This document shows positions 1-36,127 of a stretch of DNA of 47,590 nucleotides, in pieces. The first letter of the stretch is position 1. Each line of letters begins with the position of its first letter. The stretch is from Eubacteriales bacterium (lineage in GTDB: Bacteria > Bacillota > Clostridia > Oscillospirales > CAG-272), in contig JAZLBH010000151.1 of the NCBI GenBank assembly GCA_045613605.1, positions 1 through 47,590 on the forward strand, given 5' to 3'. Below the pieces are notes generated by a model. That model was not told the DNA's origin. It searched no databases and saw only the letters and a program-made list of their open reading frames with translations. A program made the translations under genes and the position numbers.

Positions 1-79
1 CTCCCACCAAAATCTCATTTTTTCCTTTAATGGGTGCAACCTTGGTCTCGGTTGCACCCATATCGATACATATGGTCAT
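1..79 (-). CDS. 5' fragment of a sugar-kinase-like protein (ASKHA fold; ROK/BadF/NanK-like); continues beyond the window start
   Basis: ATG at 77-79, 1 nt after the TAA (81-83) of the upstream permease. It opens a frame reading MTICIDMGATETKVAPIKGKNEILVG to the window edge. I-x-I-D-x-G-x-T-x-x-K resembles the phosphate-1 loop of ROK/BadF sugar kinases. Only 26 codons are visible. Confidence 0.3.
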   Translation of the reverse strand, partial: MTICIDMGATETKVAPIKGKNEILVG

Positions 80-80
80 A

Positions 81-956
81 TTATCCTTTTACAGCTCCTA
101 CTGTTACACCCTTTGTGAAATACTTAAGTACTAATGGGTAAACAAGAAGGATGGGTATTATACTTACAACGATCATAGCCGCCTCTATATTGCTCTTTTG
201 AATATTTTCAAGCGTTCCCGAAAGTACGTCGGGCTCGGACTGAATATAGTTAAGCATATAGAGTGACAAGGGGTACCATTTTTCTTCAGTACCAAGATAA
301 AGCAATGCGCTTGTGTAGTTGTTCCAAAGCGTAACCGCTGTGAACAAGCTTACGCTCGCTACACATGGCATGGACATTGGCAACAAAATTTGAAACATTA
401 TCTGAAGATTGTTTGCTCCGTCGATCGAAGCAGATTCTTCAAGCTCACCCGGAAGCGATTCAAGATAACTCTTTATCAAAATAAGGTTATAAACCTGAAC
501 TACCGAAGGCAAAATCAATGCCCAAGGTGTTTTTGTGAGCCCTAATGCACTTACAACAAGGTAATTAGGAATCATACCGCCTGAGAAGATCATGACGATA
601 ATGAAGAACACCATAAGCGCCTTACGAAGTGGGAATTGTGGCTTAGACAATGCATAAGCCGCAGCGAACATTACCGTTACTGAAAGCAATGTTCCACATA
701 CTACGACAAGGAATGATACACCCATCGCTCTCCAAAATCCGGGATCAGAGAACACGTATTGGAAGTTAAAGAGTGTAAAGCCCTTGGGAGTAAAGTTAAC
801 GTCATTACCCGCAGTAGAAAGAGCTACTGAAAGTACGTTAAGAAATGGTATAAAGCAGATAACCGAAATAATTATCAACATAAAAACGTTGATAAAATTA
901 AACACGCGGTTCTCTTTTATTTTATTGTTACGTTTTACTGTCAAATTCTTATCCAT
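81..956 (-). CDS. carbohydrate ABC transporter permease (CUT1, MalG/LplC-like)
   Basis: ORF-track frame 81..965 starts at a GTG. The first ATG (954-956) lies just past the TAA (959-961) of the preceding permease. Multiple hydrophobic TM stretches. EAA-type loop LESLPGELEESASIDGANNLQIMFQILLPM is typical of sugar ABC permeases. Confidence 0.85.
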   Translation of the reverse strand: MDKNLTVKRNNKIKENRVFNFINVFMLIIISVICFIPFLNVLSVALSTAGNDVNFTPKGFTLFNFQYVFSDPGFWRAMGVSFLVVVCGTLLSVTVMFAAAYALSKPQFPLRKALMVFFIIVMIFSGGMIPNYLVVSALGLTKTPWALILPSVVQVYNLILIKSYLESLPGELEESASIDGANNLQIMFQILLPMSMPCVASVSLFTAVTLWNNYTSALLYLGTEEKWYPLSLYMLNYIQSEPDVLSGTLENIQKSNIEAAMIVVSIIPILLVYPLVLKYFTKGVTVGAVKG

Positions 957-958
957 AA

Positions 959-1900
959 TTACCACACACCATTTCCTGTTTTCTTTTTACTAAAGTAGTT
1001 AGCGCTAAGTATCAAAATCAAAGAAATGATACCGTTAAACAAACCTACCGCAGTTGATAAGCCGTAATTACTCTTACCCATTCCGAATCCCAATCTATAT
1101 ACGTAAGTACCAATGATTTCACCGGTTTCTCTTGTTTGTGAGTTGAGCATAGCATAAACCTGCTCAAAGCCCGCATCCATAAGATAACCGATACGAATTA
1201 TAAGCATTACTATAATTGTAGGCATAATCGAAGGAATCGTTATATTCCAAATTTGCTTCATCTTACTTGCACCGTCAATTTTCGCAGCCTCGTACAAAGC
1301 AGGGTCAATGGACATAATAGCCGCAATATAAGCAATTGAGCTATAACCAATTTCCTTCCAACCTGAAAGAATTACAACAAGCCATCTAAACCATCCCGGC
1401 TCACCCATATAGTGAATCGCTTCTCCGCCAAGAGCCACACCGATGTTATTGATTGGGCCATACATTCCGAAGATACTGTTGAAAATACCAACGATAACTA
1501 CCCAAGAGAAAAAGTGAGGCAAGAATACTATTCCCTGCACGAGCTTAGAAAATCTTTTATTTCTAAGCTCTGTGATCATTACTGCCAATACAACGGGCAA
1601 TGGGAACAAAATAACAATCTTCATAACAGAAATAATCAATGTGTTTCTGATATAAGAAAGAATTTCAGGGTCGGAAAAGAGTATCTTGAAGTTTTCAAGT
1701 GTCCACTCGGACTTTTGGAACGCCGTAAAAACGTCGTATCTCAAAAAGTTTGGGTTGTCCTTGAATGCAATCAGAATACCCGCCATAGGTAAATAAGAGA
1801 ATATGAGAGCAAACAATACTGCAGGGATAACAAAAGGAATCAAGCTTTTATACTTTTTTACTTTTGCACCCAATGTCATTTTTTCCTTTTTAGTGCTCAT
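959..1900 (-). CDS. carbohydrate ABC transporter permease (CUT1, MalF/LplB-like)
   Basis: 313-aa polytopic membrane protein. EAA loop YEAAKIDGASKMKQIWNITIPSIMP. AAGGAG lies 8 nt upstream of the ATG. Confidence 0.85.
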   Translation of the reverse strand: MSTKKEKMTLGAKVKKYKSLIPFVIPAVLFALIFSYLPMAGILIAFKDNPNFLRYDVFTAFQKSEWTLENFKILFSDPEILSYIRNTLIISVMKIVILFPLPVVLAVMITELRNKRFSKLVQGIVFLPHFFSWVVIVGIFNSIFGMYGPINNIGVALGGEAIHYMGEPGWFRWLVVILSGWKEIGYSSIAYIAAIMSIDPALYEAAKIDGASKMKQIWNITIPSIMPTIIVMLIIRIGYLMDAGFEQVYAMLNSQTRETGEIIGTYVYRLGFGMGKSNYGLSTAVGLFNGIISLILILSANYFSKKKTGNGVW

Positions 1901-1924
1901 ATTGTATACTCCTTAATGGATTTA

Positions 1925-3484
1925 TTATTTTGCAGAATACCAAGCGTTAATGGCTGCTGTAGCTTCTGTACACTTATACTGACCGTTAAGCTTTTGCTGA
2001 TAGTTAGCAAGCTCGCCTGTGCCATTCTTAAGCATAATATAGAACCAGTCCTGTGCATTTGTTTCAATGTTAGCACGGTTTGCTGTATAAGCTGCGATGG
2101 GAGGTGTAAAGTCAACAACGTTATATACACCTACTGTATCAGCATTATCCATAAGCTCTGACCAAGCTCTGAAGAGTTCGGGCTGCTTACGTACACGTGC
2201 AAGCCAATAAGCTGTGTACTTTGTTTCGTTAGAACCTGTCATATAGTAAGACGCCTGGTCCTTTTCAGCAAAGTTAGCTGCAGGCATATATCCGCCGTCA
2301 GCAGTATATGTCCAATGGTTGCCCTCTTCACCGATAACGATCTGACGGAAGTTGTCCTCTGTTTCAGTATCCTTGATCTTGGAGTTCATCCAGTCAAGAG
2401 CATAACCTGCATTTTCAGCCATGTAGTAAGGAATTGCTGTGATGTATGTATAACCGCTGCTGCGATATACCTTTTCAGGAGCATCCTTGCTGGACTTCAA
2501 AGCACGAAGGTATGCAAGCTCATTTGTAAGCTCACCGTCTGTGTTGATACCCTTAGTGTCAAGACCTGTAACGATAGCAGGAACTGTCCACAAAGAGCAT
2601 GCATAAGCAGCTGCCTTAGCACCGCTTGCACTAGAATCAAAGCTATTTACAAAACGGTTTGTTGCATCAGCAGCACCGTTTGTTGCAACTTCAACGTCGA
2701 TATAACCCTTTGTATACAAGGAGTGCATATATTCAACGTATTCGCTGTATCTGGGAGCGTTCATATAGAAAAGAACTTCACCGTTATATTCCTGCCAGTA
2801 AGAGTAGATACCGAAAGCAGCAGAAATAGAATATACGAGGGGAGTAAACTTATCGAATGTCAAAGCGGGCTGACCAAGCTTTTCTGTCAAAACCTTAAGA
2901 ACGTTTTCAAATTCTTCAAGAGTTTCGGGCATATCAAGGCCACATTCAAGCATAAGGTCATAGTTGAAAACGATGGGGTTTTCAATGTTGTCGCTGGAAG
3001 CTCTTTCGGGAATACCGTAGATCTTACCGTCAACTGTTACAACGTCCCAAGATTCCTGAGAAATATTTTCAAGCATATCGGGAGCAAACTTTTGAAGTGC
3101 TTCGATGGGAAGTTCAAGAAGCATATCCTGGTCAACAAGGTCAGCAAACTGATCCTTAGTGAGCTTCATAACGTCATACTGCTCTTTATCCATAAGGATT
3201 GTGTTAAGAGTGTTAGTAGCGTCAGCAGGAAGCTGAGTGTAAGTTACGTCGTAACCTGTAAGCTCTTCAATAAGAGCAGCTGTGGGGTCACTGTTAACTG
3301 CATCAATAGACTTACCGGAGTTAGGCATCAAAACCTTAAGAGAAGGCTTGCTATTCAAATCAATATCCATATTGATTGTTTCCGAGCCATTGTTTGTTGT
3401 GCCGTCACCGTCTTTACATGCTACAAAAGCAAGGCTTGTAAGAAGCATGGACAACATAAGCACAAGGGATAAAATCTTTTTCAT
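1925..3484 (-). CDS. extracellular solute-binding lipoprotein of the ABC importer (LplA-type, family 1)
   Basis: Signal peptide with lipobox (LTSLAFVAC|KDG). The ~520-aa size and position upstream of two CUT1 permeases fit the family. AAAGGAG RBS. Confidence 0.8.
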   Translation of the reverse strand: MKKILSLVLMLSMLLTSLAFVACKDGDGTTNNGSETINMDIDLNSKPSLKVLMPNSGKSIDAVNSDPTAALIEELTGYDVTYTQLPADATNTLNTILMDKEQYDVMKLTKDQFADLVDQDMLLELPIEALQKFAPDMLENISQESWDVVTVDGKIYGIPERASSDNIENPIVFNYDLMLECGLDMPETLEEFENVLKVLTEKLGQPALTFDKFTPLVYSISAAFGIYSYWQEYNGEVLFYMNAPRYSEYVEYMHSLYTKGYIDVEVATNGAADATNRFVNSFDSSASGAKAAAYACSLWTVPAIVTGLDTKGINTDGELTNELAYLRALKSSKDAPEKVYRSSGYTYITAIPYYMAENAGYALDWMNSKIKDTETEDNFRQIVIGEEGNHWTYTADGGYMPAANFAEKDQASYYMTGSNETKYTAYWLARVRKQPELFRAWSELMDNADTVGVYNVVDFTPPIAAYTANRANIETNAQDWFYIMLKNGTGELANYQQKLNGQYKCTEATAAINAWYSAK

Positions 3485-3518
3485 AATGATCTCCTTTATG
3501 AATTAAATAAATTTATTT

Positions 3519-5180
3519 TTAGGAAAATAATTCCATAAAAAACTTAGCTATAGCATCAAAAAATGCTTTAATAAATGCCATAAATGAGTTAGGCTTTGCA
3601 GCAGGCTCTGTGGAAGATGTATAATTAGGATCCTCTTCCCCACATTCGCACTTGCCTTCAACGTATTCGTGTTCATGAGGAACGTAATCGGGATCAACCT
3701 CTCCACATTCACACTTGCCTTCTATGAACTCGTGCTCATGAGGAGGCACGTAATCGGGATCAGCCGCTTGGCATCTTGTACAAACACCGTTATAGTATTT
3801 ATGTCCAAGAGGATTGCCGAGAGTCTCACCACATTCACATTTAGCGGGCTCTGTGCAGGTCGCATCGTTCCAGTAATGACTGTGAGAATCACCTGATCCT
3901 GAGCCTGTGTTGTAGTTAGGATCAACCTTACCACAGGAGCAAACACCGTCTACGTAGCTATGCTCGTGAGGTTCAGTCTCCTTAGACTTTTCTACAAGCA
4001 TAATAGCATTTGAAACCTTACGCATAGAACCGTCGGATGGAGAGTTACGAAGTGTAAGTGTATCATTGATACGAACTACCATCGTAGAAGAACCGCCACC
4101 GTCAAGCTCAAGTGCATACTGAGCACCGAGAACACTTGCAAGCTGTGCTTCCTGTTTAACCGTAATACCGGTAGAACCGCCCGCACCGCGTCCGTCAACT
4201 ACACAAAGGAATCCTGTACCGTCAGCCTTGAAGCCAATAAAAGTACGTGGTGCAGATGCATTACCGTCATTGTCGGTGTGACAGTCCGTGTTAACAACAT
4301 TATTGTTAACCAATGCATCATATCCGCCAACTACCCAAGTGCATCCTGCAAATTTACCTGCAGGAATTTCAACAAGGTCAACGGGCTGTCCATAAACATG
4401 ACTTGCAAAGATTTCTTCATTTGCCGCACCGTAAACGATAGCATATTGACCGCTCTTAAGAGTGAACTCTTTTGCTGTTTGAACGCCTGTAGCACTCATT
4501 GTGTAGTCAGAACCCCAAACGGGATAAGCAGTGAGATTTGTGCTTTCTGCCTTAACAACCATAGCTCCCGCATTGTATACTGTATAAGTACCTGCAACGT
4601 TATAGATTGCTATCTCACCCGATGAGGGCTGCTGATTAAATTTATCAATTTTGAAAAATTGAGGTTCATTATTTTCATTGTAAATAACGATGCGAGACTC
4701 AACCTCTGTCATTCTGCCAACCACAACTTTTCCGTTGTTATCAAAGCCAATGCAATTTTTGTTTTGCATATTTCCCTTTGTAATAACGATACCGTTATTT
4801 ACGTAGGAATCTACGTTAGCGCCTGTATTATAAAAAAAGTCGCCGTTTACCGCAAGCATAACCTTGCGTCCTGTTTCAGCCTCATAATTCTTGGCAATAT
4901 TCATAACGTTTGAAAGAGTGGTATTTGAACCGTCTCTAACACTGTGAATTACCCATTCATACTCAGCATCTGCGGTGGTAGAATTGTACTCACCGTAAAA
5001 AATCTTTTGTGTAGATCCGTTTTCTTTTACTGTTGCTTCCTTGTAAACGATACCATTAATATTCTTAGAATACGTAGGAGTAGAAAGAACGCTTGACGTG
5101 AAAGCGGATACTGTAATAGTCATCAGAAGAACCAATGCCACTACTATTGTTAAAGAAGTTAAAATTTTTTTCATTTTCAT
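3519..5180 (-). CDS. secreted phosphodiester glycosidase family protein (NAGPA/DUF2233 domain) with C-terminal Cys/His mini-modules and a conserved amphipathic tail
   Basis: N-terminal signal/anchor (ILTSLTIVVALVLLMTITVSA). Motifs AVNGDFFY and RTFIGFKADGTGFLCVVDGRG...ALELDGGGSSTMVV match the NAGPA (uncovering-enzyme-like) domain. Repeated HEHxF/YxxGxCxCGxxDP(D/N)Y units at 3621-3968. The last 23 aa (NSFMAFIKAFFDAIAKFFMELFS) are the shared tail. Confidence 0.75.
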   Translation of the reverse strand: MKMKKILTSLTIVVALVLLMTITVSAFTSSVLSTPTYSKNINGIVYKEATVKENGSTQKIFYGEYNSTTADAEYEWVIHSVRDGSNTTLSNVMNIAKNYEAETGRKVMLAVNGDFFYNTGANVDSYVNNGIVITKGNMQNKNCIGFDNNGKVVVGRMTEVESRIVIYNENNEPQFFKIDKFNQQPSSGEIAIYNVAGTYTVYNAGAMVVKAESTNLTAYPVWGSDYTMSATGVQTAKEFTLKSGQYAIVYGAANEEIFASHVYGQPVDLVEIPAGKFAGCTWVVGGYDALVNNNVVNTDCHTDNDGNASAPRTFIGFKADGTGFLCVVDGRGAGGSTGITVKQEAQLASVLGAQYALELDGGGSSTMVVRINDTLTLRNSPSDGSMRKVSNAIMLVEKSKETEPHEHSYVDGVCSCGKVDPNYNTGSGSGDSHSHYWNDATCTEPAKCECGETLGNPLGHKYYNGVCTRCQAADPDYVPPHEHEFIEGKCECGEVDPDYVPHEHEYVEGKCECGEEDPNYTSSTEPAAKPNSFMAFIKAFFDAIAKFFMELFS

Positions 5181-5192
5181 TCTCTTCTATTC

Positions 5193-5216
5193 CCCCATCG
5201 CCCGAAGGCGATGGGG
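5193..5216 (-). other. intercistronic GC-rich stem-loop (10-bp stem, UUCG loop) between the giant lipoprotein gene and the phosphodiester glycosidase gene
   Basis: Minus-strand RNA reads ccccaucgcc-uucg-ggcgaugggg. It is preceded by an A-rich run and not followed by a U-tract. It ends 12 nt before the ATG at 5180 and contains the G-rich stretch that would serve as SD. Confidence 0.6.
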
Positions 5217-5253
5217 TTATTTTGTTTTTATTAATTGTATATTCAGTTAAGAA

Positions 5254-8200
5254 TTACTGGAATGTAAATCCTGTGATACTCATCTTCTGACCTACGAGAA
5301 AACGGCAATCAAGACCAACCTGACGAGCTGCATTACCGTCGGAACCACCGTTAGGAAGGATTACGAGTGTTTCGCCCTCCTGAAGGCTTTCCCAAGCCAA
5401 TGTAGCAAAGTTGTTTACAGTTACACCGTGTGTTTTATCATTAACACCGCTGGTTGCATCAGTATAACCAGCATTTGCACCGTCGTAAATTCTTGCAACC
5501 TTACCCTGAGCATCAAGAACTACTGCTACACCATAACCGTTAGTTGTGAATGTGCCTGTAAATCCCTTATCGTAGATAATGATAGCATAGCTAGCTGCAT
5601 TTGAAGTTGTTACAGCTGTGTTATAAAGCCACTTACCTTCTGTAGCTGTGTATGTCTTAGAACCGATTGTAATTGTCTTATTGGGGTCAGCAAATGTAAC
5701 ACCTGTAAGATGCATTGTCTGGTTGAAGAGATAACGGCAGTCAAGACCGATCTGACGAGCCTTATTTCCATCCGCACCATTGGGGAATACAACAAGTGTT
5801 TCACCTTCCTGAAGCTCGGACCAAGCTACTGTTGCAAATGTATTTGCATTAAAGTGAGCAGATGCCTGTTTACCTGCGGGCAACCAATAACCAACGTTTG
5901 CACCGTCATATACTCTTGCTACTCTTCCGTATGCATCAAGTACAACTGCTACACCATAGCCGTTTGTATTGAAGCTACCTGTGTAGCTCTTGTTAAATAC
6001 CCAAACTGCCTTTGTTGCGGCATTGGATGTTGTGATTTCTTCATTGATAGCCCACATGCCATCAACTGCTACGTACAATTTAGAACCGATTGAAACTGTG
6101 AAGCAGTTGCACTTCTTAGCACAAACTTCTTCTGTGCAAGCTGCATTTGTACAGCTACCGCATGTTTCGCATACGTTTTCGCAATAATGAGTGTGACCTG
6201 CGCACTTGGAAGCACAAACCTCTTCTGTGCACTCTGCATCAAGGCAAAGTCCGCACTGAGGACATTTGCTTTCACATTCGTGAGCGGGAACGCTGAATGT
6301 ATAACCAGTCAATACTACTTCTTTACCCATAGTATTTGCCCAGTTATCGCAAAGACCCTTACCGAATGTACGAGCAGAGTCTGCTGCATTTACAGCGTCA
6401 TTGGGGAAGATAATAAGAACTTCACCTGCTTTAAGCTCAGCAAAAGCTGTTGTAGCATAGTCGCCTACTGCATAGTGGATAGCTACCTTACCTTCAGCTG
6501 TGTAGTAACCGTCCCAAGCATAACCCTTAACGAGCTTGCCGTTACCGTCAACTACAAGCGCTACACCGTAGCTATTTGTAGAGAATGTACCTGTATAATT
6601 TCTATCAAAGATAATCATCTTATAGTTCTGTGCCTTAGGCTCAGTTGTATTACCGCACTGTGTATTATACAACCATTTGCCTTCAGCTGCCATAAATGAT
6701 GTACCGTTTATAGCAAAGTATTTGTTTGCGCTTGTATCTGTGCATACACACTTCTTAGCGCATACTTCATTTGTACATTCTGTATCCTTGCATCCGCCGC
6801 AGATAGCGCAAAGGCTTTCACAGTCGTGGCAAGAGCACTTTGTTTCACAAGCCTTTTCTGTACAAGCGGGATCCAAGCATCCGTTACACTTAGCACAAAT
6901 GCTTTCACATCTGTGGCAAGCACACTGAGCAAGACACGCGGGCATGATGCAAGTTGCATCCATACACTTACCGCAATCTGCACAAGCGCTTTCACAAGCG
7001 TGCTCAGGAAGTGCTTCAAATGTTACACCGGGAATTGTTGCAAGAGCACCAATTACACGAACACCACCAAGGAAGCTACGGCCTGCATTACCGTTCAAAC
7101 CGCCGTTAGCTCCGAGAATAAGGGTTTCACCCTCAGAAAGAGATGCATAAGCATCCTTCAATGTATCACCTGCAGCAGTAACACCTGCGATACCTGCTCT
7201 GTTAGCAGCATCGAAGTACTTACCACCACTTACGCCGTCGTAAATACGAACAACCTGACCGTACTGGTTAAGGATGAATGCCTGTGCCCAGCCGTTGCTC
7301 CAAGAAAGAGTTGCATTATCTTTCTTGAAATTATATGTATAAACTACAAAGTTATAAGAACCAAGAGTAGGTTTAGCTTCATCAATAGCAATTGTTCCGC
7401 CAAGAATCTTAAGAGACTTGCCATTAATTACTACTGTTACACAGTCACATTTAGCTGCACAAACCTCATTGTCACATTCGGAAGTACATTTTGCACATAC
7501 TTCGCAAATGTCTTCACAGTTGTGAACGTGACCTGCACACTTGTTAGCGCAAGCTGATTCTGTGCATTCTGCATCAAGGCAAAGACCGCACTGAACGCAA
7601 ACACTTTCACACTTGTGTTCAAATGTGATACCGGGAATTACTACCTTCGCACCGATTGTACGGTTAGAGAGCAAGAATCCTCTTGTAGCATTACCGTTAC
7701 CGTTAGGAGCAACAAGGAGATATTCTCCTGCCTGACGAGAGTTAAATGCCTCTGTCAAGTATCCAGCTGCTGTGCACTTAGATGCATCAGCTATACCCGC
7801 AGGATTTTCAACATCATAATACTTACCGTTAGCACCGTCGTAGATACGAACTACTTCGCCGTACTGGTTGATTATAAAGGCTTCACCCCAACCGTTTGCC
7901 CAGTTGAGATTGCCTGTATAACTAGGTGTATAAATTACAAATACGTTCTTACCAAGAGCATTGAGATCCTTGTCGATTGCAACAAGAGATTCAACTGTTG
8001 TATAAGCATTACCGTTAATAGAAATTTCATAAGCACTTGTTGTAACCTCAACAACACGAGTTACTGTTGTTGCATGTGTGCCGTCAGTAGCTTCAAGGGT
8101 AATTGTATATTTACCTGCTACGCCGATATCAAATCCACCGTCGTTAACAATAGTAACTGTAACAGCTGTATTGTCAGCAACGTCGAATGTGCCGTTATCG

Positions 8201-9336: not shown

Positions 9337-9411
9337 AAGAAATACCTCCTCAAGTATTTTTTTAATTATTTTAAGATGCAAAGCATCAGAAAATCTGTTT
9401 TTTTCGATTTA

Positions 9412-11490: not shown

Positions 11491-11515
11491 TTGTTACTCA
11501 CTTTCCGTCAAGCAA

Positions 11516-14500
11516 TCAAGCGATGCCAAAAAGTCTTTTGAAGAAATTGATAATTGCCTGGAAGATTCTTGCAAAGAAGCCAAGCTGCTCGGGCTCTTCT
11601 GCAGGCTTATTGATATTGATGTTACCACCCTCGTTTACAGGAGGCGTATTATTTGTTCCACCGGGAGCAAAGATACCGTCTTCATTAACTACGGGACGCT
11701 GAGGATTCTCTTCAGGATTCCACTGTCCGTCCTCAATAAGCTTCATAGAAATTCTTGCATCAAGCACGTCAGCAAGATAATTGAGCTGCTCAATGATTCT
11801 CTGGCGTGAGTATCCGTTTGCATAGTTCTTAATTACATTTGTCTTTGCAAGCTCAGTGATTGCCTTTTTAATCTTATAGATTGCAACTGCATCACTGTCA
11901 TCCATAGCTGCAATTTCGTCAAGAATTGCCTTAAGCTCAGCCTTTTGAGCCTCGGTCATACCGCCTGCGGGAATATAGAGTCTATCTGCCTTATCAATGA
12001 TATCCGCAAAGCCTGCCAAAAGAATCTCATTGATGTCTGCATGAGGAAGAACTCCCCATTTGCTGTTTACACCGTTCTTGAGGGCATTTTGAACGTCCTC
12101 GTGACCGATAATCTGTGTTGAACAGAAAATTACGTAACCTGATGCACCCGCATTATAGGATGCTTCGATAAATTCCTTATTATAGTATGCAGGAAGTCCG
12201 CTGTAGGAGGAAGCAAGACCTGCATAGTACATACAAGTGTTACCACCCATAAGGATCATTTCCTTAACTCTTGCATTTACGTCAGAAGCATTGTTGTAAT
12301 ATGCCATGGGTGTTGCAATATCAATCCAACCGTTATTGAACCAAGTTTTCCAATCCTGCTTCTTTGCACCGCTTGATTCACTCAAGGATGCAAATACTGA
12401 CGTTGAAAGCATAATATCGTTAGGAAGCTTAACCTCATCCTTAATTCTGCGAACGTATTCAGTAATAATGGAAGCACGGTATTTAACCCACTTATCGTAG
12501 TTTTCAGTTGCTTCTGCTTCACCGCCCTTGAGGTAATTAGGATCAAAGAGCTGCTTAAACTTATTGTACATTTTTTCTCTTGATGAAAGCTGGTTATCAG
12601 TAAATTCTTTACCAAGAGTTGCATAGAAGCCCTTCATAGCCTCAATTGTAAAGCCTGTATCCTCAGTTGCATCGGAAACAGGATAACGAATATAGTCAAG
12701 GTTAAGTCCTGAAATTTCAGGGTGCTTTGTCAAAAGATCGTTATAATATTTGATAAGTGTATCCTGAACGGCCTTATTAGCGGGGTCGATGAAATAGTAA
12801 GGACCACCCTCGTTACGCTGAATTGTCGTGCCGTCATCGTTGTACATTACCCAATCGGGATGCATGGTCAAAACTTGAACTGTCTTATCAGTTCCAACGT
12901 AGAAGTTTTCAACCCAAGCATGTACCTCAATGCCGTTTTCAATACAGCAAGCTACAAAAGCAGAAAGGTAATCGTTATAAATTGTACCCTCTTCCGTTCT
13001 ATATGTTTCGGAAAGGTTCTTGTGATATGGGAATTCGGCAACATCGCTTCTGAATGTTGAATATCCATTATAAAGTGTTTCAACAAAAACAAGGTTAATG
13101 CCTATTTCCTTATACATCTTTACATTAGTCAAAATTTCAGCATATGTCAATTCAATGGGTCTGTGCCATACTGCTCGAGCAGAAACAACGTTGCTCTCAG
13201 CTGAGCACATAATAATTGTCTGACGAAGCTTTTCAATTACAAGCTGACTATCATTATATCTCATAAGAAGACTAAGACGAGCGTCTTCAGTAAGATCGGG
13301 ATCTTCAAGGGCAACCTCGATCTCCTCTTTTACTGATTTTAATTTTCCAAGCTCTTCTCTTGCCTGATCAATGTAGCCGTTCAAAGCCTCTGCGTTTACA
13401 TCATAAAGCTGTTTGATTCTTGTTTCAGCATTTGAAATCGCTGATTCAACGCTTGTTACAAGATTTTCGTAGTAAGAGTTAAGGGTTGTGGAAACAGAAT
13501 ATCTATTATTCTCTTCATCAAGAACTACTGTTGCACCAACAACGATATTACCACGAATAAAGTCACGACCCAATCCGTGACCGGATATTACGTAACCTCC
13601 CTCGGGAATTGATGAAACGTTTACACCAAGCTCAACAACGATGCCGTTAGCATCAACTGCGGCTTCAAAGCCATAAACGTTTGTACCTGTACCGGACGCG
13701 CCCTTATAGTCCCAACCGTACTTATAAATAATAGTTTGGTCAGTACCGCGGAACGCAGGAAATTCTTCAGTAGAAGTTTCCATACCGTTGGGGTTGCTTT
13801 CCTTTGTAGGGTTAATATGGTCAAAGGTGCCGTAAACCGTACCGCCAAATCTTACGAAATCAAAGCCAACCATCTTAACCTCGTCGCCAACGTTAAACAA
13901 TTGAAGCTTAGCGAGAAGCTGACGGTAACCGGGACCGTAAGCACTAAGAACGAATCCGTTATCGGGAATTACGGAACCGGAATCATCTCCGATACCGAAG
14001 GGACGGAAATCTTTAACCACGAACGTGTTCTTTTCGAAATCGAACTGACACATCATTTCAGTACCAAATACGTTAGTACCTGTCTTTTCACCGTACTGAT
14101 AGTCGTAATAAACGACCATGGACGTTGAACGGTTAGCATTTGTTGCATCAACAACAACTCTGCTTCCGCTTGTAGATTCAACTGCCTTTGTGGGAATAAC
14201 AAGCTTCTTTTCACCGCCCAATGTAACTACGTCACCGATTTTTGCAAAATCAAGATGAATATTGCTGTTAAGTGAAAGAACAAAACCGCCTACAGGAATA
14301 TATGTAGTACCGTCACCGCTTGTATTAATCTTAGTTACAACATAACTTCCATCACTGTACTCACAAACGTATTCAGTATAATTACCAACACGTCCGGTAG
14401 TGGTTTTGGGATAATACGCAGTGTAAATTATAGAATCTTCATCGTAGATAGTATCATAATGAATTTCATAGTCCGTCAATGAACCACCACTTGCAACTTC

Positions 14501-14686
14501 CCAGTAATCTGCCGGGTCTGAGGATACACCTGAGATGGTGTTTTCACCAACCGTAACGGTGATTCCTCTGATTGAAATGTCACGAGTATACTCACCCTCT
14601 TGCGCTGCGAAGATCATCACTCCGCTAACTGCCAAAAGAGAAACAAGTAACACACACAATCCGATTCTAAATAAATTTCTTTTCAT
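11516..14686 (-). CDS. secreted GHL10 (DUF187) protein with ~430-aa N-terminal beta-rich extension and conserved C-terminal tail
   Basis: Signal peptide (LCVLLVSLLAVSGVMIFAAQ). The C-terminal ~600 aa are a close paralog of 9412..11490 (INLVFVETLYNG, IEVHAWVENFYVG, YYFIDPAN, GLNLDYIRYP). Tail LGFFARIFQAIINFFKRLFGIA. Confidence 0.75.
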   Translation of the reverse strand: MKRNLFRIGLCVLLVSLLAVSGVMIFAAQEGEYTRDISIRGITVTVGENTISGVSSDPADYWEVASGGSLTDYEIHYDTIYDEDSIIYTAYYPKTTTGRVGNYTEYVCEYSDGSYVVTKINTSGDGTTYIPVGGFVLSLNSNIHLDFAKIGDVVTLGGEKKLVIPTKAVESTSGSRVVVDATNANRSTSMVVYYDYQYGEKTGTNVFGTEMMCQFDFEKNTFVVKDFRPFGIGDDSGSVIPDNGFVLSAYGPGYRQLLAKLQLFNVGDEVKMVGFDFVRFGGTVYGTFDHINPTKESNPNGMETSTEEFPAFRGTDQTIIYKYGWDYKGASGTGTNVYGFEAAVDANGIVVELGVNVSSIPEGGYVISGHGLGRDFIRGNIVVGATVVLDEENNRYSVSTTLNSYYENLVTSVESAISNAETRIKQLYDVNAEALNGYIDQAREELGKLKSVKEEIEVALEDPDLTEDARLSLLMRYNDSQLVIEKLRQTIIMCSAESNVVSARAVWHRPIELTYAEILTNVKMYKEIGINLVFVETLYNGYSTFRSDVAEFPYHKNLSETYRTEEGTIYNDYLSAFVACCIENGIEVHAWVENFYVGTDKTVQVLTMHPDWVMYNDDGTTIQRNEGGPYYFIDPANKAVQDTLIKYYNDLLTKHPEISGLNLDYIRYPVSDATEDTGFTIEAMKGFYATLGKEFTDNQLSSREKMYNKFKQLFDPNYLKGGEAEATENYDKWVKYRASIITEYVRRIKDEVKLPNDIMLSTSVFASLSESSGAKKQDWKTWFNNGWIDIATPMAYYNNASDVNARVKEMILMGGNTCMYYAGLASSYSGLPAYYNKEFIEASYNAGASGYVIFCSTQIIGHEDVQNALKNGVNSKWGVLPHADINEILLAGFADIIDKADRLYIPAGGMTEAQKAELKAILDEIAAMDDSDAVAIYKIKKAITELAKTNVIKNYANGYSRQRIIEQLNYLADVLDARISMKLIEDGQWNPEENPQRPVVNEDGIFAPGGTNNTPPVNEGGNININKPAEEPEQLGFFARIFQAIINFFKRLFGIA

Positions 14687-14743
14687 AGTGCCTCCCTATG
14701 CTTTTTATTTTTTGCCCATTTTTTGTAGACATTTTTAACTTAA

Positions 14744-15886
14744 TTAATCATTTGAGCCGTATTTTTGACTCAAGAAGCTATGATAATCTTGCTTCGCTTC
14801 AAAAAAGGTTTTTGCAGCGTCAAAGAGTATAGTTCCCTCCGCGCCTGCGGCTTTGCTCGCCTCAATATGTGTATCAAGCTCATCGGTTGTTTGGTTATGA
14901 TAGGTTGTATAAAGTCCTGTATAGCACTTTGCTCCGTTACACATTGCCTTAAGATTTTTAACTGCCTCTCCAACCTGTGTAGCACTGTAAAAATGCACCA
15001 TGGGAGTTACCATATCCACATACTTATTATTCAACCAAGCCTTAATGCTTTGTTTTTTGAAATTATAGGTTTGCTCAATTTCAGGGAAAATTGCGGTCGA
15101 CACCCATACTCCTGCATGCTTTTCATCAACCATGTCACGAACACTCTTTATAAATGAGGTAATGTATTCCGAACGGTATGCGATCCACTCAGCTTCAAGA
15201 TTATTTTCCTTGATAAGAGCATTAAATTTTGGGGGATTATTATCATTTCCAACATTAAGTCCGCAACGCTCGGCAAAGCCGCGCATTGAAACCTCAGTAT
15301 ATCCCGTATCCGTATTGTCTGCCATAACTGAAATGGGATAACGAATATAATCAAGGTTAAGACCCTTTATCTGCGGGAATCTTTCGAGAATCTCGTCATA
15401 AAGATTAACCAAATAATTTCTAACCTCCGGATTTGCTGGGTCAATAAAAAGATAACCGCCAAATCCGTGACCCTCAGTCGTGTGTCTTAATTTTCCGTCT
15501 TGATTGATAAGCATCCATTCGGGATGCTCAACAACAAACGTTGCCTCTTCCTTAACCCCCACGTAAAAATCCTGAACCCACGCGTGCACGTGTATTCCTC
15601 GTTTTTCCGCTTCATTTACGAAAGCGCTGAGATAGTCGGGATATTCACCGTAATTAAATCCTTCAAGCTTTGGACGGTACGGAACGTTTTTTGATTTGAA
15701 AATAGCTGCTCCGTGGAAAAACGTTTCAAGAAAAACAAGATTAACTCCCGCTTCTTTAAATTCGTCAAGAACCAAGCAAAGCTCTTCAAGATTTGTTTCT
15801 CTCTCGCTGGAGTTTGGTCTATGCCATACTCCCAAGATTTGTTTATTTGATTGTAGTGCCTCGTCAGCACAGTTATTTGTATTCAT
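14744..15886 (-). CDS. cytoplasmic GHL10 (DUF187) family protein
   Basis: No signal peptide (MNTNNCADEALQSNKQILGVWHRP). Same core motifs: VNLVFLETFFHG, IHVHAWVQDFYVG, YLFIDPAN, GLNLDYIRYP. Confidence 0.7.
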   Translation of the reverse strand: MNTNNCADEALQSNKQILGVWHRPNSSERETNLEELCLVLDEFKEAGVNLVFLETFFHGAAIFKSKNVPYRPKLEGFNYGEYPDYLSAFVNEAEKRGIHVHAWVQDFYVGVKEEATFVVEHPEWMLINQDGKLRHTTEGHGFGGYLFIDPANPEVRNYLVNLYDEILERFPQIKGLNLDYIRYPISVMADNTDTGYTEVSMRGFAERCGLNVGNDNNPPKFNALIKENNLEAEWIAYRSEYITSFIKSVRDMVDEKHAGVWVSTAIFPEIEQTYNFKKQSIKAWLNNKYVDMVTPMVHFYSATQVGEAVKNLKAMCNGAKCYTGLYTTYHNQTTDELDTHIEASKAAGAEGTILFDAAKTFFEAKQDYHSFLSQKYGSND

Positions 15887-15941
15887 AAAAGTTTAACTCC
15901 GAGTATACGATTCAAAGCATCATTTTGCCTTGTACATAAAT

Positions 15942-17438
15942 TTAGTTTTTTTCTCTCAATGCAAGATCGACCTCAAACATTCTCTTCCAAGGCATTCTGC
16001 ATATTGAAATTTCATACCTTTGAACAAGCTCAGGGAAATTTTCAGCAATATATTTCTCAAGCTCTTTTTTCACTATTTTGGCAACCTCTCCGTCGGTTTC
16101 ACCTGCATCAAAATAGTTATATCCCATTTTAGGCAACACGTTATTTGTTACGTGAGCGCGAATGCATCCGCAATAGCCAACGTCCTCATAAATTCTTTCC
16201 GCCAAAAATCTTCTTTGGTCAGCACTGTCACCAAACAGCAAAACGAACACCGCTTGGCAAATTACTGTTCCAAGTGTATTTGAGGATGTATTCCATCCTG
16301 CATAAGCGGAAAGACTTAGCAAGTCCATCTCTTTTCCAAGCATCTGCAAAAATTCTTTATCTCCACCGTTACAGTATGCACCGTCAGCCAAAGCGGTAAC
16401 CTTGCTTGAAGCAATACTGCATTTTATTTGAGAAATGAATTCTTCAAGATTTCTCTCGTCATATCCCGCACTCTTTTCTTGCCAAACCTCAACGGGGTCG
16501 TATGCAGGATAATTCAAATAAAGATGGATATCGGCATTTTCTTTAACGCCATCCTCCACACAACCTGCCGAACCTATTTGAAAGGGCAAGGTTTTATAGA
16601 GGGGTCTATCCTCATAAAGAGGAGTAATGTTAGGAGCATCCTTGTGGGGAAACTCACAATAAATTCTAGGTGTAATTCCCTTATACTCACAAGCCGCGCG
16701 AGCAAGCAAGGTCATACCAACCTCATCGGCACCAGGATACATAGCCACGTCATCAAGACCGTTTTCTTTAAGCGCATTTTTTATTGCTTCCCTATCCATT
16801 GAGGTATATCCAAATTCCGCCGAGTCGTCCTGCGGAATAATAAGAAAATCTATTGATTTATGCAATCTTTCAACCGTCTTAATCAGCATATTTCTGTTAA
16901 TAATACGGCGAGCTTCAAAATCACTAAGATTATCACCAGTCGCTTTTGCATATTCAGAAATCAATGACTGTGCTTCAGTTTCACTGATAATTCCAAGTTC
17001 AAGCTTGTGCTTTGCCTGTCCTGTAAGGAATATCTCTCTGCCGCAGTATTCATAGTAATCGGGCTCTTCGTCCGAGCTTGAATATTTAGGGCATCTCATA
17101 ATAAGTGCGAAAGCATATATTTTAATTTTAGGGTTAATTGCTTTTATTTCATCAACAAGTGCCAAGCGTTCGCAAAGCTCTTCTTCAGTAAAATGATGTA
17201 ATCTTGATGGAATGATTCCACCGTAAAGCAACATATCGAGTGAAATTACAAGAGCATCTGCAAAAGCCACGTTTTCAAGAATAAACTTTTTTATTCCATC
17301 AAAGCTTGCAGGCTCCTTCTTGTTACCGAGCAACATTATGTCCGGGGCAATCACCTCAACCTCGGAGCCCTTCGCGATTCTTTGTGCGAAATAATAGTTA
17401 CACGGTCTTTCGTCCAATGGAATGTAGATTAATCTCAT
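15942..17438 (-). CDS. DUF4127 family protein (function unknown), cytoplasmic
   Basis: 498 aa, no signal peptide. The N-terminus MRLIYIPLDERPCN and overall size match my recollection of the DUF4127 family. Its start codon lies 1 nt after the nanE stop. Confidence 0.55.
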   Translation of the reverse strand: MRLIYIPLDERPCNYYFAQRIAKGSEVEVIAPDIMLLGNKKEPASFDGIKKFILENVAFADALVISLDMLLYGGIIPSRLHHFTEEELCERLALVDEIKAINPKIKIYAFALIMRCPKYSSSDEEPDYYEYCGREIFLTGQAKHKLELGIISETEAQSLISEYAKATGDNLSDFEARRIINRNMLIKTVERLHKSIDFLIIPQDDSAEFGYTSMDREAIKNALKENGLDDVAMYPGADEVGMTLLARAACEYKGITPRIYCEFPHKDAPNITPLYEDRPLYKTLPFQIGSAGCVEDGVKENADIHLYLNYPAYDPVEVWQEKSAGYDERNLEEFISQIKCSIASSKVTALADGAYCNGGDKEFLQMLGKEMDLLSLSAYAGWNTSSNTLGTVICQAVFVLLFGDSADQRRFLAERIYEDVGYCGCIRAHVTNNVLPKMGYNYFDAGETDGEVAKIVKKELEKYIAENFPELVQRYEISICRMPWKRMFEVDLALREKN

Positions 17439-17439
17439 A

Positions 17440-18117
17440 TTAGTCTTCTAACTTAAGTGCTCCAAGCAATCTTTCTGTTATTACCTTTGGTCTTGTTATT
17501 GCTGAACCAACGACCACAGCATAAGGATTAACCTTAGAAATAGCTTCCATATGAGAAACCTCAAAAACGCCACCCTCAGCTATCACCTTTGCATTTTTCA
17601 CGTGCTTTACACACTCAGCAACCAAATCAACATCTGGAATTTCATACTGTGTTGTATAGGGAGTATATCCCCTTAAGGTTGTAGAAATATAATCAAACCC
17701 AAGCTTGTCAGCATTAATGGCTTCTTCAAGAGTTGAAACGTCCGCCATTATTTCTCTTCCGTTAGCATTTTTGCGAGCATATTCATAAAGCTCTTCAAGT
17801 GTTTCACCGTTAGGACGGGCGCGAAGTGTAGCGTCCATACAAAGAACATCGCATTTAGTTGCAAGAAGTCTGTCTATTTCCTTTTTAGTGGGCGTAATAT
17901 ATATCTCACTGTCATCATAGCATTCTTTAACAAGGCCGATAATAGGAAGTCCGACCTCGTCTTTTATACTATCAATGTCGTCAACCAACGCACGAATTCC
18001 GCAAGCTCCGCCTTCTTTAGCCGCCTTTGCAAACAAATGCATAATTCCATATCCGTAAAGGGGTTCGCCCTTAACCGCTTGGCATGATACGATCATACCT
18101 CTTTTCAAAATACTCAT
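17440..18117 (-). CDS. nanE: N-acetylmannosamine-6-phosphate 2-epimerase
   Basis: MSILKRGMIVSCQAVKGEPLYG... is the typical NanE N-terminus. Further matches: GIRA, TLRGYT, and IAEGG near the C-terminus. I prefer the ATG at 18115-18117 (GAAAGGA RBS 7 nt upstream) over the longer ORF-track start at 18177. Confidence 0.85.
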   Translation of the reverse strand: MSILKRGMIVSCQAVKGEPLYGYGIMHLFAKAAKEGGACGIRALVDDIDSIKDEVGLPIIGLVKECYDDSEIYITPTKKEIDRLLATKCDVLCMDATLRARPNGETLEELYEYARKNANGREIMADVSTLEEAINADKLGFDYISTTLRGYTPYTTQYEIPDVDLVAECVKHVKNAKVIAEGGVFEVSHMEAISKVNPYAVVVGSAITRPKVITERLLGALKLED

Positions 18118-18150
18118 TACTTGTCCTTTCTGTATATAGCAATAATCAAT

Positions 18151-18171
18151 CTTTGTGTAAATTGCACAAAG
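18151..18171. promoter_or_regulatory. candidate operator: palindrome CTTTGTG-N7-CACAAAG in the nanE operon leader
   Basis: ctttgtgtaaattgcacaaag has 7-bp perfect inverted arms and a 7-nt AT-rich spacer. It lies between the predicted -10 (18200-18205) and the nanE RBS. Confidence 0.45.
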
Positions 18172-18199
18172 ATACACGTATCCATTTTTATCTTATTAT

Positions 18200-18228
18200 A
18201 TTATATAACTTATCATTCATAATGTCAA
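18200..18228 (-). promoter_or_regulatory. sigma-A type promoter of the nanE-to-ABC operon
   Basis: Minus strand reads TTGACA-17 nt-TATAAT (perfect consensus), ~75 nt upstream of the nanE ATG and just downstream of the GH38 terminator. Confidence 0.65.
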
Positions 18229-18292
18229 TAGTTTTTGTGTTTTTTTATTTCAAAAAGCAAAACTTTTTTTGAAAATAAATTTCATTTTTAGC

Positions 18293-18323
18293 AACAAAAA
18301 ACAGGCTCAATTTTCATTGAGCC
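18293..18323 (-). terminator. rho-independent terminator after the GH38 gene
   Basis: Minus strand: ggctcaat-gaaa-attgagcc followed by tgttttttg. Confidence 0.7.
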
Positions 18324-18332
18324 CATTATTTT

Positions 18333-22090: not shown

Positions 22091-22138
22091 AAAGCAAGCT
22101 CCTTTAAATAAATTAGTATTTTTTGTACACTTTTATAT

Positions 22139-22167
22139 ATTTTAATACATTTAGATATATCTGTCAA
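22139..22167 (-). promoter_or_regulatory. sigma-A type promoter of rpiR-GH38
   Basis: Minus strand reads TTGACA-17 nt-TAAAAT, ~45 nt upstream of the rpiR ATG. Confidence 0.55.
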
Positions 22168-22211
22168 GAGGATTTGCACTTTTTATTCTATTTATGCACA
22201 ATTTTATGTAC

Positions 22212-22244
22212 AAAAAAAGAAGCAGGTGCTTTTGCACCTGCTTC
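22212..22244 (-). terminator. rho-independent terminator after the 582-aa secreted protein gene
   Basis: Minus strand: gaagcaggtgc-aaaa-gcacctgcttc followed by ttttttt. Confidence 0.8.
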
Positions 22245-22258
22245 TCATTATCAATTAA

Positions 22259-33385: not shown

Positions 33386-33395
33386 AAAAAATAAT

Positions 33396-33433
33396 AAGGG
33401 AGTGCTCTTTGGAGTGCTCCCTTGTTATTTTTT
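33396..33433 (+). terminator. rho-independent terminator after ssrA
   Basis: aagggagtgctc-tttg-gagtgctccctt (12-bp stem including two G:U pairs) followed by gttatttttt. Confidence 0.7.
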
Positions 33434-33468
33434 CGTTGCATAAAATGAGGGGGGTCGAACGCAGTGAG

Positions 33469-36098: not shown

Positions 36099-36127
36099 AT
36101 TTTCCCCAGTAAATTGTGTATAGGTTT

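Follow-up and report, generated by a model that had tools for sequence, protein, structure and literature searches.

A conserved predicted operon for NanE, DUF4127, GHL10 and NAGPA-type proteins in Eubacteriales: a candidate system for the use of N-acetylmannosamine-containing wall polymers

The locus described here is a predicted glycan-utilization operon in a 47,590-nucleotide stretch of DNA from an Eubacteriales bacterium (contig JAZLBH010000151.1, positions 1 to 47,590; this whole stretch is called the window). Its genes code for the N-acetylmannosamine (ManNAc)-6-phosphate 2-epimerase NanE, a DUF4127 protein, three GHL10 proteins, a giant lipoprotein, a NAGPA-type phosphodiester glycosidase and an ATP-binding cassette (ABC) importer. 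Among the described systems closest to it, the Firmicute nan clusters combine an RpiR-type NanR regulator with an ABC importer, NanA, NanK and NanE. The GHL10 family includes DigH/YddW, a housekeeping wall enzyme of Escherichia coli. In human NAGPA, the N-acetyl group and the phosphate of the substrate are read by residues E226, T227, T260 and R316. The DGGGS motif of this family is reported to be invariant from bacteria to man and central to the binding of N-acetylglucosamine (GlcNAc)-1-phosphate (2026 structural study, PMC13474241). Cwp19 of Clostridioides difficile is a GHL10 protein that acts on peptidoglycan (PMC6016235, PMC5765458); its gene lies within the anionic-polymer (wall-polymer synthesis) locus, and its segment Asp195, Asp196, Tyr197 is implicated in activity, with Asp196 proposed to be catalytic (PMC5765458). 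DogH is another reported member (PMC9967864). An earlier note on this DNA, made from the sequence alone, had named DigH as the only characterized GHL10 protein, which Cwp19 (PMC6016235, PMC5765458) and DogH (PMC9967864) correct. The N-glycan system of Streptococcus pneumoniae consists of a locus with GH20C, ROK, GH38, GH125, GH92 and GH29 genes, together with EndoD and the importer NgtS-P1-P2 (PMC5215778).

The locus is of a known kind, the Gram-positive polysaccharide-utilization operon. A co-located regulator, a binding-protein-dependent importer, secreted and cytoplasmic glycosidases and sugar catabolism are all present, and its assignment as a glycan-utilization locus is firmly supported. 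Its composition is new to the literature searched, which makes no mention of DUF4127 (PF13552) and nothing relevant on PF12831, in agreement with the earlier note, which knew of no described locus of this composition. At a probability of about 0.5, the substrate is predicted to be a ManNAc/GlcNAc glycopolymer from other bacteria in which N-acetylhexosamine (HexNAc)-1-phosphate diesters either make the link to peptidoglycan or hold the polymer chain together. Secondary cell-wall polymers (SCWP), S-layer glycans and wall-teichoic-acid linkage units are examples. The substrates that the earlier note had proposed, among them teichoic-acid linkage units, SCWP and phosphodiester-linked capsules, are likewise putative. 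The locus resembles the pneumococcal N-glycan system (PMC5215778) in surface trimming, ABC import, cytoplasmic exo-glycosidases including GH38, and a ROK kinase; the binding protein is distantly NgtS-like, and GH20C occurs in related DUF4127 loci. It differs in the absence of GH125, GH92, GH29 and GH85, in the presence of three GHL10 proteins, a NAGPA-type enzyme, DUF4127, PF12831, NanE and NagA, and in having all of these in one predicted operon under an RpiR regulator. From the pneumococcal combination of GH38 with GH125, GH92 and an endo-beta-N-acetylglucosaminidase, GH38 alone is present. With the nan clusters the locus shares an RpiR regulator, a binding-protein-dependent importer, and ROK, NanE and NagA proteins that funnel ManNAc to glucosamine-6-phosphate (GlcN-6-P). 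Unlike those clusters, it has no NanA or sialidase, and its source of ManNAc would be a glycoside processed by DUF4127, GHL10 and a flavoprotein. The operon, the unit upstream of it and their predicted products are as follows.

21269..22090, minus strand: RpiR/MurR-family regulator (Pfam HTH_6, 7e-22; SIS, 2e-23)
18333..21257, minus strand: cytoplasmic GH38 alpha-mannosidase of the Ams1/MAN2C1 type (N-terminal, middle and C-terminal GH38 domains all present)
18300..18327, minus strand: intrinsic terminator closing the rpiR-GH38 unit (12-bp stem, then TTTTGTTG; hairpin-plus-T)
18200..18228, minus strand: operon promoter, sigma-70-type (12/12 consensus match)
17440..18117, minus strand: NanE, ManNAc-6-phosphate 2-epimerase (PF04131, 4e-47)
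15942..17438, minus strand: DUF4127 protein, cytoplasmic (PF13552, 1e-146)
14744..15886, minus strand: GHL10 protein, glycosidase-like TIM barrel, cytoplasmic, 380 aa (PF02638, 4e-25; DUF4015, 1e-11)
11516..14686, minus strand: GHL10 protein, secreted, 1056 aa (GHL10 at residues 521-808; signal peptide; tail ...LGFFARIFQAIINFFKRLFGIA)
9412..11490, minus strand: GHL10 protein, secreted, 692 aa (GHL10, 4e-15)
5254..9381, minus strand: giant surface lipoprotein, 1375/1360 aa (lipobox LAMTSC; Bact_surface_Ig-like, 4e-11)
3519..5180, minus strand: NAGPA-type phosphodiester glycosidase, secreted (PF09992, 2e-28, 100 bits against 25)
1925..3484, minus strand: solute-binding lipoprotein, 519 aa (lipobox AFVAC; no Pfam match)
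959..1900, minus strand: ABC permease 1 (BPD_transp_1, 7e-19)
81..965, minus strand: ABC permease 2 (BPD_transp_1, 2e-14)
1..79, minus strand: 5' end of a ROK kinase gene, reading MTICIDMGATETK...; the operon runs on past the window

Every gene of the studied region is carried on the minus strand. The operon promoter, TTGACA-17-TATAAT at 18228..18200, sits directly downstream of the terminator of the GH38 gene (18327..18300) and is the only 12/12 sigma-70-type match in 19 kb, as expected from the single consensus promoter of the earlier note. Ten complete genes follow it in the same direction, and then the kinase gene as an eleventh, of which the first 26 codons lie in the window; the intergenic gaps are 1 to about 75 bp. 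The nanE gene starts with the ATG at 18117, behind the ribosome-binding site GAAAGGA. Six metagenomic contigs have an identical permease, and this match reveals seven further genes downstream of the window edge. The longest of these contigs, L001 (52.7 kb), comes from a closely related strain and has the same intergenic hairpin sequence. Its genes beyond the window code for a ROK kinase, a PF12831 flavoprotein, NagA, a ROK-like protein, aldose 1-epimerase, an MsmK/MalK-type ATPase and ManA, and a long hairpin 3' of manA ends the extended unit. Since the contigs with the identical permease carry seven more genes, the complete unit from nanE to manA is, by this comparison, 17 genes and about 26.4 kb long, of which the window shows the first two-thirds. 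The eleven co-directional genes counted earlier are therefore found as ten complete genes and a kinase start in an operon that continues past the window, and the size then given, about 18 kb and 11 genes, is replaced by about 26 kb and 17 genes. A 118-bp gap separates the aldose 1-epimerase gene from the ATPase gene. The sequence is compatible with a single transcription unit, with one promoter and no hairpin-plus-U terminator inside the operon; the lack of a terminator stated earlier is amended by a GC hairpin without a U tract at 5216..5193.

All of the domains proposed in the earlier note scored above the Pfam gathering score in profile searches. Localization was assigned by reading the N-terminal sequences by eye and not by computation. 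NanE, DUF4127, the 380-aa GHL10 protein and GH38 have no leader, and Sec-type leaders are found on the 1056-aa and 692-aa GHL10 proteins and on the NAGPA-type protein. The proposed division into surface and cytoplasmic products holds on this reading.

Conservation was analyzed using 80 loci, which were obtained by scanning one genome per GTDB species for DUF4127 and were annotated with the window's own proteins. These loci are the closest relatives of one query and some are short, so the counts describe the sample, with no hypothesis test. The order rpiR-GH38 / nanE-DUF4127-GHL10(cytoplasmic)-GHL10(large)-(GHL10)-giant-NAGPA-binding protein-permeases was found in at least 17 species, and further loci are cut by contig ends. 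The gene combination singled out earlier is thus a conserved unit in at least 17 species-level genomes. Carriers of this full type are metagenome-assembled genomes (MAGs) of uncultured Oscillospiraceae, Eubacteriales and Clostridia from the guts of yak, sheep, roe deer, chicken, rabbit and human. Among the full-order loci, the lowest DUF4127 identity is 46%. Within 10 kb of DUF4127, NanE is found in 47 of the 80 loci, which strengthens the link to ManNAc made in the earlier note. GHL10 (36 loci), RpiR (34), GH38 (24), ROK (23) and PF12831 (13) are its other neighbors, and the GH38 gene is syntenic in 24 loci.

A reduced core, consisting of RpiR, an ABC importer, DUF4127, a PF12831 protein, a cytoplasmic GHL10 protein, NanE and ROK, is found in Paenibacillus, Bacillus, Psychrobacillus, Solibacillus, Lachnoclostridium phytofermentans and other Lachnospiraceae. 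It is the smaller, older form. These loci have no GH38, NAGPA or giant protein and add a GH20C hexosaminidase and an esterase. In loci of Haloplasma and Acholeplasmataceae, DUF4127 stands in tandem, in two or three copies with GHL10 on the flanks, and GH20C or GH84, GDSL esterases, GNAT, NagA and NagB are present as well. The distant DUF4127 loci thus have a HexNAc theme (GH20C, GH84, SGNH/GDSL esterases, GNAT, NagA, NagB). In locus L041, a GlcNAc 2-epimerase (PF07221) adjoins DUF4127 in place of NanE; as judged by gene position, this is a link to ManNAc that is independent of NanE. Acholeplasmataceae and Haloplasma are wall-less, and their DUF4127-GHL10 clusters must therefore be directed at a foreign substrate, for foraging and not for self-recycling, at least in these bacteria.

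The catabolic end of the pathway was assigned from family matches. NanE matches over its full length (PF04131, 160 bits against 27; NF002231, 250 bits against a cut-off of 189). The kinase-like fragment of the earlier note corresponds to a complete ROK kinase gene on L001-L004, with a product of 290 aa whose best NCBIfam match is NanK, below cut-off. On L001, NagA (TIGR00221, 366 bits against 226) and ManA, a class I mannose-6-phosphate isomerase (TIGR00218, 125 bits against 116), are above their cut-offs. A predicted route from ManNAc to ManNAc-6-phosphate (ROK; NanK match below cut-off), GlcNAc-6-phosphate (NanE) and GlcN-6-P (NagA) is firmly supported. The same holds for a predicted parallel branch from alpha-mannosides to mannose (GH38), mannose-6-phosphate and fructose-6-phosphate (ManA). 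The second ROK-like protein of L001 (458 aa, a distant ROK relative) and the aldose 1-epimerase are counted with GH38 and ManA in the mannose branch. The best PDB relatives of GH38 include Ams1, at 3e-118. Assignment of GH38 as an MngB-like phospho-mannoside hydrolase was rejected (82 bits against a cut-off of 1138). Neither a sialidase nor a NanA lyase turned up in domain profile searches of the window genes and of L001, which took in the window and the 9 kb beyond it downstream, and this bears out the absence of both stated earlier. No DHDPS/NanA or BNR/sialidase domain was found in these genes, and the locus therefore falls outside the nan clusters.

DUF4127 is the marker gene of the conserved core. 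The protein matches its family over the full length (490 bits, profile positions 2-488 of 489), and more than 2,700 relatives are found at E<=1e-10; genomes with DUF4127 number at least 563. Its AlphaFold2 model has a predicted local distance difference test (pLDDT) of 93, a predicted template modeling score (pTM) of 0.93 and alpha/beta domains. No fold match at E<=1e-3 was obtained for this model using Foldseek against the PDB, and the sequence search of the PDB gave no match. The best template modeling score (TM), to periplasmic-binding, DJ-1 and SDR-like folds, is only 0.25, and a fold assignment was rejected. Across 45 DUF4127 sequences, about 140 positions are invariant, and many of these are acidic or arginine residues, which would fit an enzyme acting on sugars or sugar phosphates. 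DUF4127-GHL10 fusions appear in three database proteins (P0102, P0107 and P0113), in the same order as the genes here. The PF12831 flavoprotein of L001, of the flavin adenine dinucleotide (FAD) type, has 529 aa (3e-90); it has no PDB relative, and its NCBIfam match is limited to the FAD-binding N-terminus.

In the Christensenellales-like MAGs of L034/L036 (5330..15000), DUF4127 and a PF12831 flavoprotein stand with a GH78 rhamnosidase, a GH2 protein and an HAD phosphatase. A weak match to the PF06439 3-keto-disaccharide hydrolase also appears there, at 24 bits, below the gathering score of 26.8. The pairing of flavoprotein and 3-keto-disaccharide hydrolase, if real, hints at oxidative glycoside cleavage and proves nothing.

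The three GHL10 paralogs score 89, 57 and 56 bits for PF02638 (gathering score 27.9) and are mutually 37-51% identical, the 380-aa protein being 37% identical to both surface paralogs. The 692-aa protein parallels the C-terminal two-thirds of the 1056-aa paralog (51% identity over 671 residues); it occurs in some orthologous loci only and is missing from many. The 1056-aa protein consists of an N-terminal half with two partial modules of the giant-protein type (residues 163-211 and 303-352), a helical linker, the catalytic barrel and the C-terminal tail. Cwp19 is the closest solved structure to the paralogs (1e-10 for the 380-aa protein). Like Cwp19 and DigH, the proteins have a PF02638 TIM barrel, two of the three are extracytoplasmic, and an association with cell-wall glycans is shared. 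They differ in their low scores (56-89 bits) with co-hits to DUF4015 and GHL6, in the cytoplasmic location of one paralog, which is fused to DUF4127 in other species, and in the position of their genes within a catabolic operon and not a housekeeping one. The motif LDYIRYP replaces FDDYFYP of Cwp19. The first Asp is kept and the second faces Tyr unless the alignment is shifted by one residue, so that the alignment is ambiguous.

The NAGPA-type protein aligns to Bacteroides 3OHG (6e-14) and to vertebrate NAGPA structures (4e-5). The NGDFF-type motif and the DGGGS loop are retained; LELDGGGSST pairs with the DGGGS loops of 3OHG and of NAGPA from guinea pig and zebrafish, in an alignment of less than 20% identity. 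The protein has a Cys-rich C-terminal stalk, a tail and an insertion of about 115 residues (162-277). It thus shares the PF09992 catalytic domain and both motifs with human NAGPA and the Bacteroides DUF2233 protein (3OHG; PMC13474241), and with human NAGPA also a Cys-rich stalk behind the catalytic core. The insertion, which lies between the domain halves, is a difference from both. Compared with the human enzyme, the stalk is made of HExxYVxGKCxCG repeats and not of EGF domains, and the protein is bacterial and surface-located, with a C-terminal hydrophobic tail.

The giant lipoprotein, whose true start is likely the ATG at 9336, contains two Ig-like domains, six copies of a module of about 135 aa and about eight Cys-rich spacers of about 30 aa. 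Hardly any Pfam signal is obtained for this protein or for the 519-aa binding protein. Searched with an iterated profile, every large GHL10 orthologue shows two partial module copies in its N-terminal half, and Psychrobacillus (2e-18) and Paenibacillus lentus have extracellular GHL10 proteins with complete copies; the module is therefore GHL10-associated. It is a candidate carbohydrate-binding module, which would make the lipoprotein a candidate glycan-capturing protein. The module model (pLDDT 83) has no significant PDB match; its best Foldseek match is the NAGPA-domain protein 6OZD (E 0.1, TM 0.37). Assignment of the module as a degenerate NAGPA domain, considered for motifs that look similar by eye, was rejected using profile-profile comparison (1.6% probability). 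For the binding protein, the best PDB relatives are S. pneumoniae NgtS/SP0092 (3e-6), a weak match of 30 bits over residues 59-271; NgtS binds Man5GlcNAc (PMC5215778). The binding-protein gene is intact in the window and in L002. On L001 (8417..9976) it is split into open reading frames (ORFs) of 425 and 75 aa, by either a strain frameshift or an assembly error.

A mechanism can be proposed from these assignments. The giant lipoprotein would capture the polymer at the cell surface through its six module copies. The NAGPA-type enzyme would cleave sugar-1-phosphate diesters and thereby unhook the polymer from its anchor or cut its repeat units, and the two secreted GHL10 enzymes would fragment the backbone. 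Oligosaccharides would be taken up by the ABC importer, energized by the MsmK-type ATPase, and dismantled by the cytoplasmic trio of DUF4127, GHL10 and PF12831 flavoprotein, which would free ManNAc. A sugar phosphate is probably the signal for the RpiR regulator, whose site of action would be the conserved palindrome upstream of the promoter. The LCP ligases use a HexNAc-1-phosphate link to fix wall polymers to N-acetylmuramic acid (MurNAc). It is suggested, tentatively and at odds well short of even, that DUF4127 with fused or adjacent GHL10 and PF12831 releases ManNAc from ManNAc-containing bacterial glycans and that the NAGPA-type enzyme unhooks LCP-attached polymers at the HexNAc-1-phosphate bond. 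ManNAc-based polymers of Firmicutes include the SCWP of Bacillus anthracis/cereus (PMC5568421) and the S-layer glycan and pyruvylated SCWP of Paenibacillus alvei (PMC2943079, PMC6030368). An N-acetylmannosaminidase is not mentioned in the literature searched, which also gave nothing relevant on L. phytofermentans with ManNAc. The S-layer glycan of Clostridium symbiosum, whose repeat is reportedly linked through GalNAc-1-P-6-ManNAc, was given no weight as evidence.

A wall glycopolymer is preferred as the substrate because of the ManNAc signature, the HexNAc, esterase and rhamnosidase company of DUF4127 (the rhamnosidase adjoining DUF4127 in L034/L036 was counted as fitting bacterial glycans), the presence of a phosphodiester glycosidase, the wall-related record of GHL10 and the presence of the core in wall-less bacteria, where only foraging is possible. 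Several points weigh against it. The 80-locus sample is biased to close relatives of the query, the enzyme functions at the locus are predicted, and the roles given to DUF4127 and the flavoprotein are guesses. GHL10 specificity is not readable from sequence, and in the ungapped HMMER alignment Asp196 of Cwp19 pairs with Tyr in all three paralogs. No MurNAc etherase is found at the locus, though the consumption of glycan strands should call for one. The transcript could be divided at the conserved internal hairpin and at the 118-bp gap that precedes the ATPase gene. The Ams1-type GH38, manA and the NgtS-like binding protein together fit high-mannose glycans better than classical wall polymers.

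The last of these points leads to a locus for phosphorylated mannan or N-glycan, in which the NAGPA-type enzyme would uncover GlcNAc-1-P-6-Man or Man-1-P-6-Man diesters of fungal phosphomannan or of glycans of the high-mannose type. Oligosaccharides would then be released by the surface GHL10 enzymes for an Ngt-like ABC importer, GH38, the kinases and ManA would use the mannose, and NagA would use the core GlcNAc. GH38 is nearest to Ams1/MAN2C1, which trim free high-mannose oligosaccharides, manA is above its cut-off, and the locus also has an aldose 1-epimerase and a second ROK-like protein. NgtS/SP0092, the best PDB relatives of the binding protein, point to Man5GlcNAc, the ligand of NgtS, and GH38, ROK and GH20C are all contained in the pneumococcal N-glycan locus (PMC5215778), with GH20C recurrent in DUF4127 loci. 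The sole NAGPA-family reaction defined in the literature searched acts on GlcNAc-1-P-6-Man. The earlier note had raised this alternative at too low a weight, given the Ams1-type GH38, manA and the weak NgtS similarity. Nevertheless, it is considered unlikely. GH125, GH92 and an endo-beta-N-acetylglucosaminidase (GH85 or GH18) are absent from the window and the downstream 9 kb, the NgtS similarity is weak (30 bits), NanE, the most constant neighbor of DUF4127, is left unexplained, and the core without GH38 or NAGPA in soil Bacillota is not accounted for.

Self-directed turnover is more doubtful still. The surface enzymes would in this case remodel or detach the bacterium's own secondary wall polymer, and the rest of the operon would recycle the fragments. 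MurR-controlled systems recycle MurNAc, and the regulator here is of the RpiR/MurR type; DigH is a housekeeping wall enzyme. Cwp19 is one as well (PMC6016235), and cwp19 lies in a wall-polymer synthesis locus (PMC5765458). The core is also found in Paenibacillus and Bacillus, genera with documented ManNAc wall polymers (PMC6030368, PMC5568421). Yet no wall-polymer synthesis genes flank the locus, and multi-copy DUF4127-GHL10 clusters with hexosaminidases and esterases exist in the wall-less Acholeplasmataceae and Haloplasma. In their combination, mannose catabolism, a high-capacity importer of its own and a lipoprotein of 1360 aa bearing six binding-type modules look like a foraging system. 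A noncanonical route for sialic or nonulosonic acids, with DUF4127 and/or the flavoprotein replacing the NanA lyase and feeding ManNAc to NanK and NanE, would explain why the core, with RpiR, an ABC importer, a ROK kinase, NanE and esterases, resembles a Firmicute nan cluster minus NanA. This route is very improbable. None of the loci examined has a sialidase or a sialic-acid mutarotase or lyase, the tight coupling to GHL10 and hexosaminidases indicates oligosaccharides and not a nine-carbon acid, and carriers such as soil Paenibacillus and Haloplasma are hard to square with host sialoglycans. A slim chance is left for substrates other than those considered here.

Gram-positive bacteria are rich in ManNAc wall polymers (SCWP, teichoic-acid linkage units and S-layer glycans), for which the literature searched gave no catabolic route. 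The locus offers a candidate gene set conserved across species, with DUF4127, GHL10, PF12831 and bacterial NAGPA proteins that have no assigned reaction in such a context, and it may well hold enzyme chemistry that is new. Culturable bacteria carry the core (Paenibacillus, Bacillus and Lachnoclostridium phytofermentans), which makes the question open to direct testing. Should bacterial necromass be the substrate, the presence of the locus would point to cross-feeding as a niche of uncultured Oscillospirales-like gut bacteria. If the proposed roles of DUF4127, GHL10 and the flavoprotein and the unhooking by NAGPA are true, this would be the first described pathway by which bacteria eat the secondary wall polymers of others.

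The rpiR gene and, behind it, the GH38 gene form a unit of two, with a promoter, TTGACA-17-TAAAAT, upstream of rpiR. Of the 80 DUF4127 loci, 34 have an RpiR gene, among them nearly all of the full type. The regulatory elements of the operon are as follows.

18267..18284, minus strand: palindromic motif TGAAATTTATTTTCAAAA, matched only once in the window and lying 40-55 bp upstream of the -35 element
18151..18171, minus strand: palindrome CTTTGTGCAATTTACACAAAG in the 5' untranslated region, unique in the window
5193..5216, minus strand: intercistronic hairpin CCCCAUCGCC-UUCG-GGCGAUGGGG with no U tract (free energy of the region, -24 kcal/mol)

The palindrome at 18267..18284 is a candidate operator or activator site. 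The pattern GAAA-N3-8-TTTCAAA was found in 19 of 24 orthologous GH38-nanE spacers, compared with 62 matches in 2 x 1.43 Mb (all fetched loci), and the promoter form TTGAC.-16..18-TA.A[AG]T in 23 of the 24. The palindrome in the untranslated region is a candidate second operator or RNA hairpin; a related form, TGTGCAA-N-TTGCACA, was counted by eye in 12 of the 24 orthologous leaders, which are those of the 12 closest relatives. An Rfam search of the operon leader gave no match to a known RNA family. Half-sites like this palindrome (TGTGCA, GTGCAAAT, GTGTACAAAA) also precede the rpiR promoter (22130..22215).

The hairpin at 5193..5216, between the giant lipoprotein gene and the NAGPA gene, is GC-rich and very stable. 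An equivalent hairpin with other stem sequences, a loop that is often UUCG-like and no U tract is found at the same position in 11 of 14 orthologous loci (L011, L014, L015, L018, L021, L022, L025, L027 and L029 are among them). The stems differ completely between loci, and therefore the structure and not the sequence of the hairpin is under selection. It is a candidate mRNA stabilizer, processing site or attenuating element and may give different mRNA levels for the genes before and after it.

One further secreted protein is coded upstream of the regulator gene.

22259..24007, minus strand: 582-aa secreted protein (no Pfam or NCBIfam match; tail ...NFFQKIIAWFTDLINKLLAIFKK)

This protein consists of two domains without a family, Cys-rich repeats and the C-terminal hydrophobic tail common to the surface enzymes. 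Residues 446-575 align to residues 401-546 of the NAGPA-type protein (33% identity, 5e-20), and the gene has its own terminator at 22205..22245. The protein is probably accessory to the system. The common tail of about 22 residues ends four secreted proteins behind an acidic or Pro-rich linker (GFFARIFQAIINFFKRLFGIA, GFFQRLILAIANFFKKLFGLA, FMAFIKAFFDAIAKFFMELFS and NFFQKIIAWFTDLINKLLAIFKK, encoded at 11516..11590, 9412..9480, 3519..3590 and 22259..22330, respectively). Among 4038 ORFs of the fetched loci, only GHL10 surface enzymes match the strict tail pattern. The tail may be an uncharacterized C-terminal anchor or sorting signal.

Cys-rich modules stand between the domains of the surface proteins and have the forms H.CES.C..CG.C.D..C....CA.KC, HEHxYVxGKCxCGxxDPxY and ATCTAPKTCSxCGxTEGEALGH. 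They are located at residues 79-114, 588-640, 793-880 and 1034-1091 of the giant protein, at residues 401-546 of the NAGPA-type protein (3519..3980) and in the 582-aa protein (22259..24007). A Pfam search of the spacers and stalks gave no family match. The modules may bind metal or form disulfides; they recall the stalk of human NAGPA, and the host is an anaerobe.

The rest of the window is occupied by housekeeping genes (BipA, MgtE, tmRNA, SmpB and glycogen genes). The tmRNA gene is located at 32993..33385 on the plus strand, with the tag DNNNVAMAA; a 137-aa ORF at 33202..33615 overlaps it and is not a gene. A block with 28% G+C at 33900..36100, right after the tmRNA gene, codes for a DnaJ-SBP_bac_3 fusion and a DUF2971 protein and looks like a small island inserted beside tmRNA. 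A lipoprotein pectate lyase (PF00544), without the C-terminal tail of the locus enzymes, is coded at 30818..32638 amid the housekeeping genes.

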